Assembly: GCF_053078305.1 (NCBI RefSeq)
Contig: NZ_CP166879.1
Reading direction: 5' to 3' (one strand)
Length of the DNA: 64,000 nt
In this document: piece after piece, positions 48,448 to 52,145 of the stretch
How positions within the stretch are numbered: the first letter of the stretch is position 1
Layout: every line of letters starts with the position of its first letter
Translations under genes and position numbers: made by a program
Notes under the pieces: model-generated
Databases searched by the model: none
What the model saw: the letters and a program-made list of their open reading frames with translations, nothing else
What the model was told of the DNA's origin: nothing

Positions 48448-48776
48448 TACTTACCCGCAGAAATCATTCTGCGGGTATTAAGTTGCTTTCTTATAAATTA
48501 ATACAGATTAATCCTGGTTATTTGCTTTATTTATCACCAGTCATCCGGTATAGTTCTTCATAATCTCTGCAAAATCATCGTGTTGTAATATTCGCTCATC
48601 ACTCTCCATCAAATTTTCTTTTTTTCTCCATAATTGGCGCAAAAGTGTTTTTTACACTTTCATTGTTTTACCGTTGCTCTGATTAATTGACGCTAAAGTC
48701 AGTAAAGTTAATCTCGTCAACACGGCACGCTACTTAAGAAAGCCGTAATAAATAACTGAAAGGAAGGATATAGAAT

Positions 48777-49386: not shown

Positions 49387-50887
<1,501 letters not shown>

Positions 50888-50900
50888 TGTTGACTCCGAA

Positions 50901-50920
50901 TGCTGGTTATCTATCCAGTG
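50901..50920 (-). promoter_or_regulatory. Candidate non-canonical LexA (SOS) box upstream of cho
   Basis: CTGG-N8-CCAG palindrome (ctggatagataaccag on the cho strand), 15-35 nt upstream of the cho start. Resembles, but deviates from, the CTGT-N8-ACAG consensus. Confidence 0.4.
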
Positions 50921-50970
50921 TAACAGGCGGGAAGCGATTAAAAAAGAGGCGGGTCGATGACAAAGGTTAC

Positions 50971-51075
50971 ACCGTCTGACGTGCTACGCCTGTCAGGCCT
51001 ATTCGACTCCTGCAATGTATTGAATTTGCATAGTTTTGTAGGTCGAATAAGGCGTTCACGCCGCATCCGGCGTGA
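50971..51075. repeat. REP/BIME-type palindromic repeats between cho and nadE
   Basis: REP-like units acgcctgtcaggcctat and gtaggtcgaataaggcgttcacgccgcatccggcgtgaac. Confidence 0.6.
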
Positions 51076-51116
51076 ACAAATTACTCTTTTTCGCACAATC
51101 CAATATGTGCAAATTA

Positions 51117-51944
51117 TTACTTTTTCCAGAAATCATCGAAAACGGTAATTGGCGGACGGCGTTTATGTTCGGTTTTCAGATACCAGTTCTCTATTGTTCT
51201 GGCGACCTGTTCAGGTACGTTTTTCCCTTCCAGATAGTCGTCGATATTGTCATAGGTCACGCCGAGTGCCACTTCATCTGGCAGAGAAGGGCGATCATCT
51301 TCCAGATCGGCCGTTGGCGCTTTCTTATAAAGGTGTTCCGGGCAACCTAATGCCGCCAGTAACTGTTTACCCTGACGTTTGTTGAGACGATACAGCGGAT
51401 TAATGTCCGTACCGCCGTCACCATATTTAGTGAAGAATCCGGTAATGGCTTCTGCTGCATGATCGGTGCCCACCACGACACCGCTGGTCATACCCGCAAT
51501 GCTATATTGTGCTTTCATCCGCTCACGCGCTTTTTCATTGCCACGGACAAAATCGCTCAGTTCAATGCCTGCTTCCCGCAATGCCTGCTCGCTAGCCAAT
51601 ACCGCGCCCTTGATATTAACGGTTAATACGCGATCCGGTTGAATAAAGGCAATGGCATCCTGGCAATCTTGTTCGTCGGCCTGAACACCATAGGGCAGGC
51701 GTACGGCAATAAATTGCAGTGATTCGTTGTCGGTTTCCTGGCGCAGCTCATTAATCGCCATCTGGCACAGCTTTCCGGCAAGCGTGGAGTCCTGACCGCC
51801 GCTGATCCCGAGCACCAGTGATTTAATGAACGGATAAGTTTGCAGGTAGCTTTTCAGAAAATCGATACTACGACGAATTTCCTCTTCAGCATTAATCTGC
51901 GGTTTTGCGCCCAGCGCCTTTATTATTTGTTGTTGCAATGTCAT
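51117..51944 (-). CDS. nadE: NH3-dependent NAD+ synthetase (275 aa)
   Basis: 275-aa ORF with the SGGQDS PP-loop motif. Confidence 0.95.
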
Positions 51945-52145
51945 TGAACCCCTCCAGACAGAAAAGACAAAACTTCCTTAAAGCTAACCCGTTGCTACTG
52001 AAACGACAAGCGACAGCGGGCTGAATGGTGGTTAAAACGTCATACAGGAATCCTCTGAAAGCGGAGCCGTTTCGTTCACGGGCTTGAAAAAGCGCCCAAT
52101 GTATTCCAGGCTTATCTAACACGCTGATAAACAAGAGGACGGAAT

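Follow-up and report, generated by a model that had tools for sequence, protein, structure and literature searches.

A palindromic element of the form CTGG-N8-CCAG lies just upstream of the E. coli gene cho (ydjQ), and the question raised by this locus is whether it is the LexA operator of the gene and, if so, what its outer G and C bases mean for the strength of the operator and for the moment at which cho is induced. The locus was analyzed within a window of 64,000 nucleotides (the whole stretch of DNA under study, to which all positions given below refer). The window is E. coli DNA: at least 80% of the 1951-bp stretch 50000..51950 is matched in 5424 of 5426 complete E. coli genomes, the promoter region is identical to that of MG1655, and the differences from K-12 are confined to the cho coding sequence, near its 5' end. 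In the RefSeq annotation of identical DNA the gene order at the locus is ves, cho and nadE. The features discussed here are listed in Table 1.

Table 1 Features of the nadE-cho region, in order from nadE to cho (window coordinates).
Feature	Position	Strand	Basis or remark
nadE	51117..51944	-	ORF and annotation; same strand as cho and upstream of it
TTGTCA-15-TTTAAT, alternative promoter	50937..50963	-	RpoD holoenzyme genomic SELEX (PMC3946193)
CCGCCTCTTTTTT with T-run	50940..50952	-	T-run (50945..50940) at the -35 position, 17 bp upstream of TAYACT
TGtTACACT, candidate extended -10 (TGn + TAYACT)	50917..50925	-	Suggested by conservation
LexA operator (SOS box) of cho, 20-mer CACTGGATAGATAACCAGCA	50901..50920	-	Sequence, matrix score and published identity
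Shine-Dalgarno sequence GGAG	50894..50897	-	6 nt before the cho GTG; GGAG conserved across loci
cho (ydjQ) coding sequence	50887..50000	-	ORF, GTG start, 295 aa; RefSeq "excinuclease Cho"

The identity of the gene product was taken from NCBIfam, because a Pfam-A scan of the protein (50003..50887, minus strand) returned no family at E ≤ 1e-3. Against the "excinuclease Cho" equivalog NF007833 the protein scored 577.7 bits (cut-off 367), and the UvrC models of the same collection matched it at residues ~24–205 only (E 1e-24); Cho reads as a homologue of the N-terminal half of UvrC. The gene has belonged to the textbook LexA regulon of E. coli since 2000–2002. Its box is said to have been catalogued by Fernandez de Henestrosa et al. 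in 2000 and by Courcelle et al. in 2001 (see PMC6590174, PMC11228462 and PMC3009722). Reportedly, the former authors placed ydjQ in the regulon on the strength of Northern data from lexA+, lexA(Def) and lexA(Ind-) strains, and the name cho is said to have been given by Moolenaar et al. in 2002.

In the cho sense, the DNA upstream of the gene reads ...TTTGTCATCGACCCGCCTCTTTTTTAATCGCTTCCCGCCTGTTACACTGGATAGATAACCAGCATTCGGAGTCAACAGTG. The palindrome that the sequence-only reading had placed upstream of cho, within 50888..50960, was found there as the 16-mer CTGGATAGATAACCAG at 50918..50903 (plus strand 50903..50918, CTGGTTATCTATCCAG), and it does lie upstream, since cho runs on the minus strand from its GTG start (Table 1). 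The palindrome is imperfect: the outer 4+4 bases pair perfectly and the central ATAGATAA is without self-complementarity. The CTG and CAG triplets are spaced by exactly 10 bp, as in an E. coli-type LexA operator. Between the end of the 20-mer that encloses this core and the GTG lie 13 nt, which include the Shine-Dalgarno sequence.

Because the bare CTGG-N8-CCAG pattern is uninformative (three matches in the window where 0.59 would be expected, with 3 of 100 shuffles also reaching three), 20-mers were scored with a full matrix; the looser CTG-N10-CAG occurs 27 times in the window. The score was the heterology index (HI) of Berg-von Hippel and Lewis, the E. coli LexA boxes of PMC3009722 (Table 4) other than that of cho, 17 in number, served to build the matrix, and sites were accepted at an HI below 15 and inside the range of proven LexA sites. 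The cho box has an HI of 7.93 (leave-one-out) or 8.02 (symmetrised matrix), which is within that range. It is the best LexA-matrix site of the entire window, and 64 kb of random sequence from a Markov-1 model would contain on average 0.025 sites of this quality. That it is the only SOS-box-like element upstream of cho was borne out as well, with the next best 20-mer of the nadE-cho spacer at an HI of 25. The runner-up in the window as a whole is TGCTTTATTTATCACCAGTC at 48523..48542 (HI 12.4–13.6), ~235 nt upstream of spy; it is without CTG and probably matches the LexA matrix by chance. A Dcm site (CCWGG) is present in one lexA operator (PMC9210283); such a site inside the cho box was ruled out, the sequence there being CCAGC.

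A second short palindrome, CCAGtgtaACAG, had been described as lying adjacent to the first. This sequence (CCAGTGTAACAG on the plus strand at 50915..50926; in the cho sense CTGTTACACTGG, containing TGtTACACT) overlaps the box rather than adjoining it, because CCAG is common to both, and it fails as a palindrome: CCAG would need CTGG, its reverse complement, at the other end, where ACAG stands instead; only TGT-n-ACA, with arms of 3 bp, is self-complementary. As a possible LexA box overlapping the first at an offset of 8 bp it was rejected too, as the 20-mer in that register has an HI of 27.

Conservation of the element was followed across the Enterobacteriaceae. Scanning species-representative genomes with the Cho protein gave 80 loci (70–98% protein identity), 78 of them with usable upstream sequence, from the genera Escherichia, Salmonella, Citrobacter, Enterobacter, Klebsiella, Raoultella, Kosakonia, Phytobacter, Lelliottia, Franconibacter, Pluralibacter, Cedecea and Buttiauxella. 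In 78 of 78 loci the best LexA-matrix site within 150 nt upstream had an HI of 4.2–10.9 and ended 11–16 nt before the start codon, and CTG-N10-CAG was kept at the same position in every one. In the site-anchored alignment, A/T at positions 7–8 and 13–15 was invariant or nearly so. The half-sites read CTGT and ACAG in 26 loci, CTGG and CCAG in 24, CTGG and ACAG in another 24, and CTGT and CCAG in 2. Conservation follows the LexA pattern, with CTG and CAG fixed, the spacer A/T-rich, and positions 6 and 15 toggling only between T and G and between A and C, respectively. The fourth base of the half-site (T or G; A or C on the other strand) is thus a position at which change is tolerated and which evolution has left free.

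Within E. coli, at least 28 of the 30 bases that make up the -10-like element and the box are exactly kept in 5078 of 5426 genomes. The upstream pattern, compared across loci, has the look of a textbook phylogenetic footprint, that of an operator fused to a putative promoter element. A rare allele, in which the left CTG is changed to CTT (reading CACTTGATAGATAACCAGCA; window position 50914, G on the minus strand), occurs in 4 of the 5426 genomes: NZ_OW967795.1 (L081), NZ_CP014111.1, NZ_CP028754.1 and NZ_CM142663.1. This allele is predicted to be an operator-down variant that partly derepresses cho. In L081, the sole CTT strain that was aligned, one T is missing from the upstream T-run.

Score, conservation and published catalogues agree in identifying the element as the LexA (SOS) operator of cho, as the sequence-only reading had supposed, and we hold it very probable that 50901..50920 is the single LexA operator of E. 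coli cho, an SOS box that was already documented. The LexA motif given for cho in Table 4 of PMC3009722, among UV-induced genes, is the 25-mer TACACTGGATAGATAACCAGCATTC, identical to the sequence of the window, and in Table 1 of PMC6590174 the gene is entered under "Known SOS box". The element itself is therefore already known, the exact cho box being in published catalogues.

How would this operator act? A simple sigma-70 scan of 50700..51300 gave no -35/-10 promoter pair, and a terminator scan of the same region returned one irrelevant terminator-like site only, inside cho. The alignment points to a candidate extended -10 element (Table 1), the last four bases of which are the first four of the LexA 20-mer. 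TGnTAnACT occurs once each in 77 of 81 sequences (the 80 loci and the window), and in the 78 loci there is little or no variation in the TA and ACT of TAnACT or in the G of the TG before it. The candidate promoter would consist of this extended -10, TGnTAYACT, and of a T-run at -35 across a 17-bp spacer, and its start site would be expected at ~50905..50912, within the operator. A LexA dimer would bind the 20-mer through the invariant CTG and CAG triplets 10 bp apart, and bound LexA would block the binding of RNA polymerase or the formation of the open complex, until, upon DNA damage, RecA*-stimulated self-cleavage of LexA relieved the block. Occlusion of the promoter is likely, because the operator begins in the -10-like element, covers the expected start and stops 13 nt short of the GTG. 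This step, like the -10 and the start site themselves, is inferred, and it is conservation that suggests the overlap of operator and promoter.

The T-run has a history of its own. Information content in the alignment of cho loci is high at -24..-18 relative to the candidate -10, and CCGCCTCTTTTTT, which is the same string as "motif 2" of PMC3009722, corresponds to the 3' arm and T-tract of the intrinsic terminator of nadE in other genera. A GC-rich hairpin followed by a T-run is present in the loci of Enterobacter, Kosakonia, Phytobacter, Klebsiella and Raoultella; in Escherichia, Salmonella and Citrobacter the 5' arm of the terminator is gone and CCGCCTCTTTTTT is retained. The region is treated here as a terminator relic in the clade of the latter three genera. 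A functional nadE terminator at the T-run was also considered for E. coli and rejected, since folding gives a REP hairpin and another stem and no GC hairpin abutting the T-run. As a separate observation, the nadE-cho spacer contains a REP-type hairpin, GTTCACGCCGGATGCGGCGTGAAC (51054..51077, minus strand), and its 191-nt RNA folds far better than shuffled sequences (z -4.4).

The hairpin of the terminator decayed, yet its 3' arm and T-run were retained, which suggests that the T-run was kept for promoter function. On this basis a composite shared across the Enterobacteriaceae may be proposed, although only tentatively, in which the T-tract of nadE at -35, the extended -10 (TGnTAYACT) and the LexA operator form one unit; in the clade of Escherichia, Salmonella and Citrobacter the T-run would have been kept for its role in the promoter, and some read-through from nadE into cho would be checked only by LexA.

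Another arrangement, which we regard as unlikely, is that transcription starts further upstream, near 50930, from TTGTCA-15-TTTAAT, or reads through from nadE, so that the box would lie at about +10 to +30 and LexA would act as a roadblock or prevent promoter escape. An RpoD holoenzyme SELEX peak lies in the nadE-cho spacer, and this pair of hexamers was proposed to be a "constitutive promoter" of RpoD at that place (PMC3946193). TTTAAT agrees with TATAAT at 5 of 6 positions, and the terminator hairpin of nadE has apparently been lost in E. coli, so that read-through into cho is conceivable. However, the hexamers are sequence picks within the SELEX peak and not mapped start sites (PMC3946193), and the 15-bp distance between them is suboptimal. 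TTGTCA is absent outside Escherichia, and TTTAAT turns into TTTAAC or vanishes in Enterobacter and Klebsiella; TGnTAYACT, by contrast, is kept in ~95% of loci.

With regard to strength, the cho box takes rank 12 of 18 verified boxes by its leave-one-out HI, i.e. it belongs to the weaker half, and the operator is of middle strength (HI ~7.5–8), like those of ruvA, uvrD and lexA. The outer bases had been read as standing "instead of" a consensus LexA box and as the source of weak binding. The first of these points does not hold, for CTG-N10-CAG is intact, CCAG is found in 7 of the 18 verified boxes and CTGG in 3, and the ruvA box has the same form. Position 15 of the 18 published boxes is held by A (11 boxes) or C (7), and position 6 by T (15) or G (3, namely ruvA, cho and dinG). 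The second point stands only in part: the box is indeed weaker than the tightest ones, but the outer G and C are not the main cause of its middle strength. The largest share of the HI of 7.9 comes from the G at spacer position 10 (3.14), followed by G at position 6 (1.82), C at position 1 (1.44), C at position 19 (0.82) and C at position 15 (0.57). Mutagenesis of operator positions 14 and 15 has shown that A or C at position 15 gives slow dissociation of LexA and that G or T weakens the site, the best base at position 14 being T (PMC5999292). As G6 is equivalent to C15 of the opposite half-site, both half-sites of the cho box hold a base that is second-best but tolerated, and the left one has, in addition, the optimum, T, at the equivalent of position 14.

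It had further been argued that G or C at the fourth base of the half-site makes a poor LexA site and that cho therefore responds late or needs heavy damage to be induced, which we consider very improbable. The cho box is in fact less consensus-like than those of umuDC, sulA, recN and dinD (HI 7.5 versus 2–5), and the amplitude of cho induction is small. The C at position 15, however, belongs with A to the favourable bases (PMC5999292), the ruvA box again shares the CTGG...CCAG form, and the expected direction is reversed: operators that LexA leaves slowly tend to peak later and to have a higher UV ED50 (PMC5999292), and lower affinity for LexA gives earlier derepression (reviewed in PMC9578287).

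A published time course points the same way. Under ciprofloxacin the log2 fold change of cho was 0.21, 0.92, 0.93, 1.14, 1.59 and 1.49 at 1, 10, 25, 50, 75 and 120 min (PMC11002266). Most SOS genes, cho among them, were up at 10 min, and HI correlated with the amplitude of induction and not with its onset (PMC11002266). These data speak against late induction, and cho, with an HI of 7.5–8 and an onset at 10 min, is outside the late, high-threshold class of SOS genes. From the middle strength of the operator, incomplete repression, an early response to low damage and a small induction ratio are expected; early onset, some basal expression and a small ratio, as predicted by a mid-HI box, match the reported 2- to 3-fold changes. 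In Salmonella, ydjQ, with one box of HI 6.69, was induced 3.3-fold by nalidixic acid, and the fluorescence of a ydjQ gfp fusion was undetectable (PMC8072944). In E. coli, expression of cho was lexA-dependent, being 5.1-fold lower in lexA3(Ind-) after AZT, yet AZT itself did not induce the gene (0.77-fold) (PMC11228462, Table 1).

A match arising by chance, or a site for another dimeric regulator, with LexA controlling cho indirectly, can hardly be maintained as the explanation of the palindrome: the bare CTGG-N8-CCAG, seen three times in the window, is not rare, but the score of the full 20-mer is, its conservation across loci matches the LexA pattern exactly, and in the literature it is a known SOS box with lexA3-dependent expression (PMC6590174, PMC11228462).

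The value of the analysis is in the first place corrective. The fourth base of the half-site is free to vary, the CTGG...CCAG form is common to cho and ruvA, and what a weaker operator leads one to expect is expression that is early, leaky and low in amplitude, not late induction. In addition, the footprint across genera leads to a testable proposal for the unmapped promoter of cho, namely a putative extended -10 fused to the operator.

Set beside known operators, the element is the LexA box of cho (ydjQ) of E. coli K-12 itself, identical in sequence and without any difference. The nearest likeness is to the ruvAB box, CGCTGGATATCTATCCAGCA, which shares with the cho box the CTGG-N8-CCAG outer form and the ...GCA 3' flank. 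The two are close in HI as well, with 7.6 for ruvA and 7.5 for cho as published (PMC11228462), and 8.5 and 7.9, respectively, by leave-one-out in this study. They differ in the spacer, which in ruvA (ATATCTAT) is all A/T except for one C, whereas that of cho has G10, its largest penalty. The tight, "late" boxes of umuDC, sulA and dinD and box 1 of recN share with cho CTG-N10-CAG and an A/T-rich spacer; they have an HI of ~2–5, a high induction ratio and slow dissociation of LexA, in contrast to the cho box with its HI of 7.5–8.
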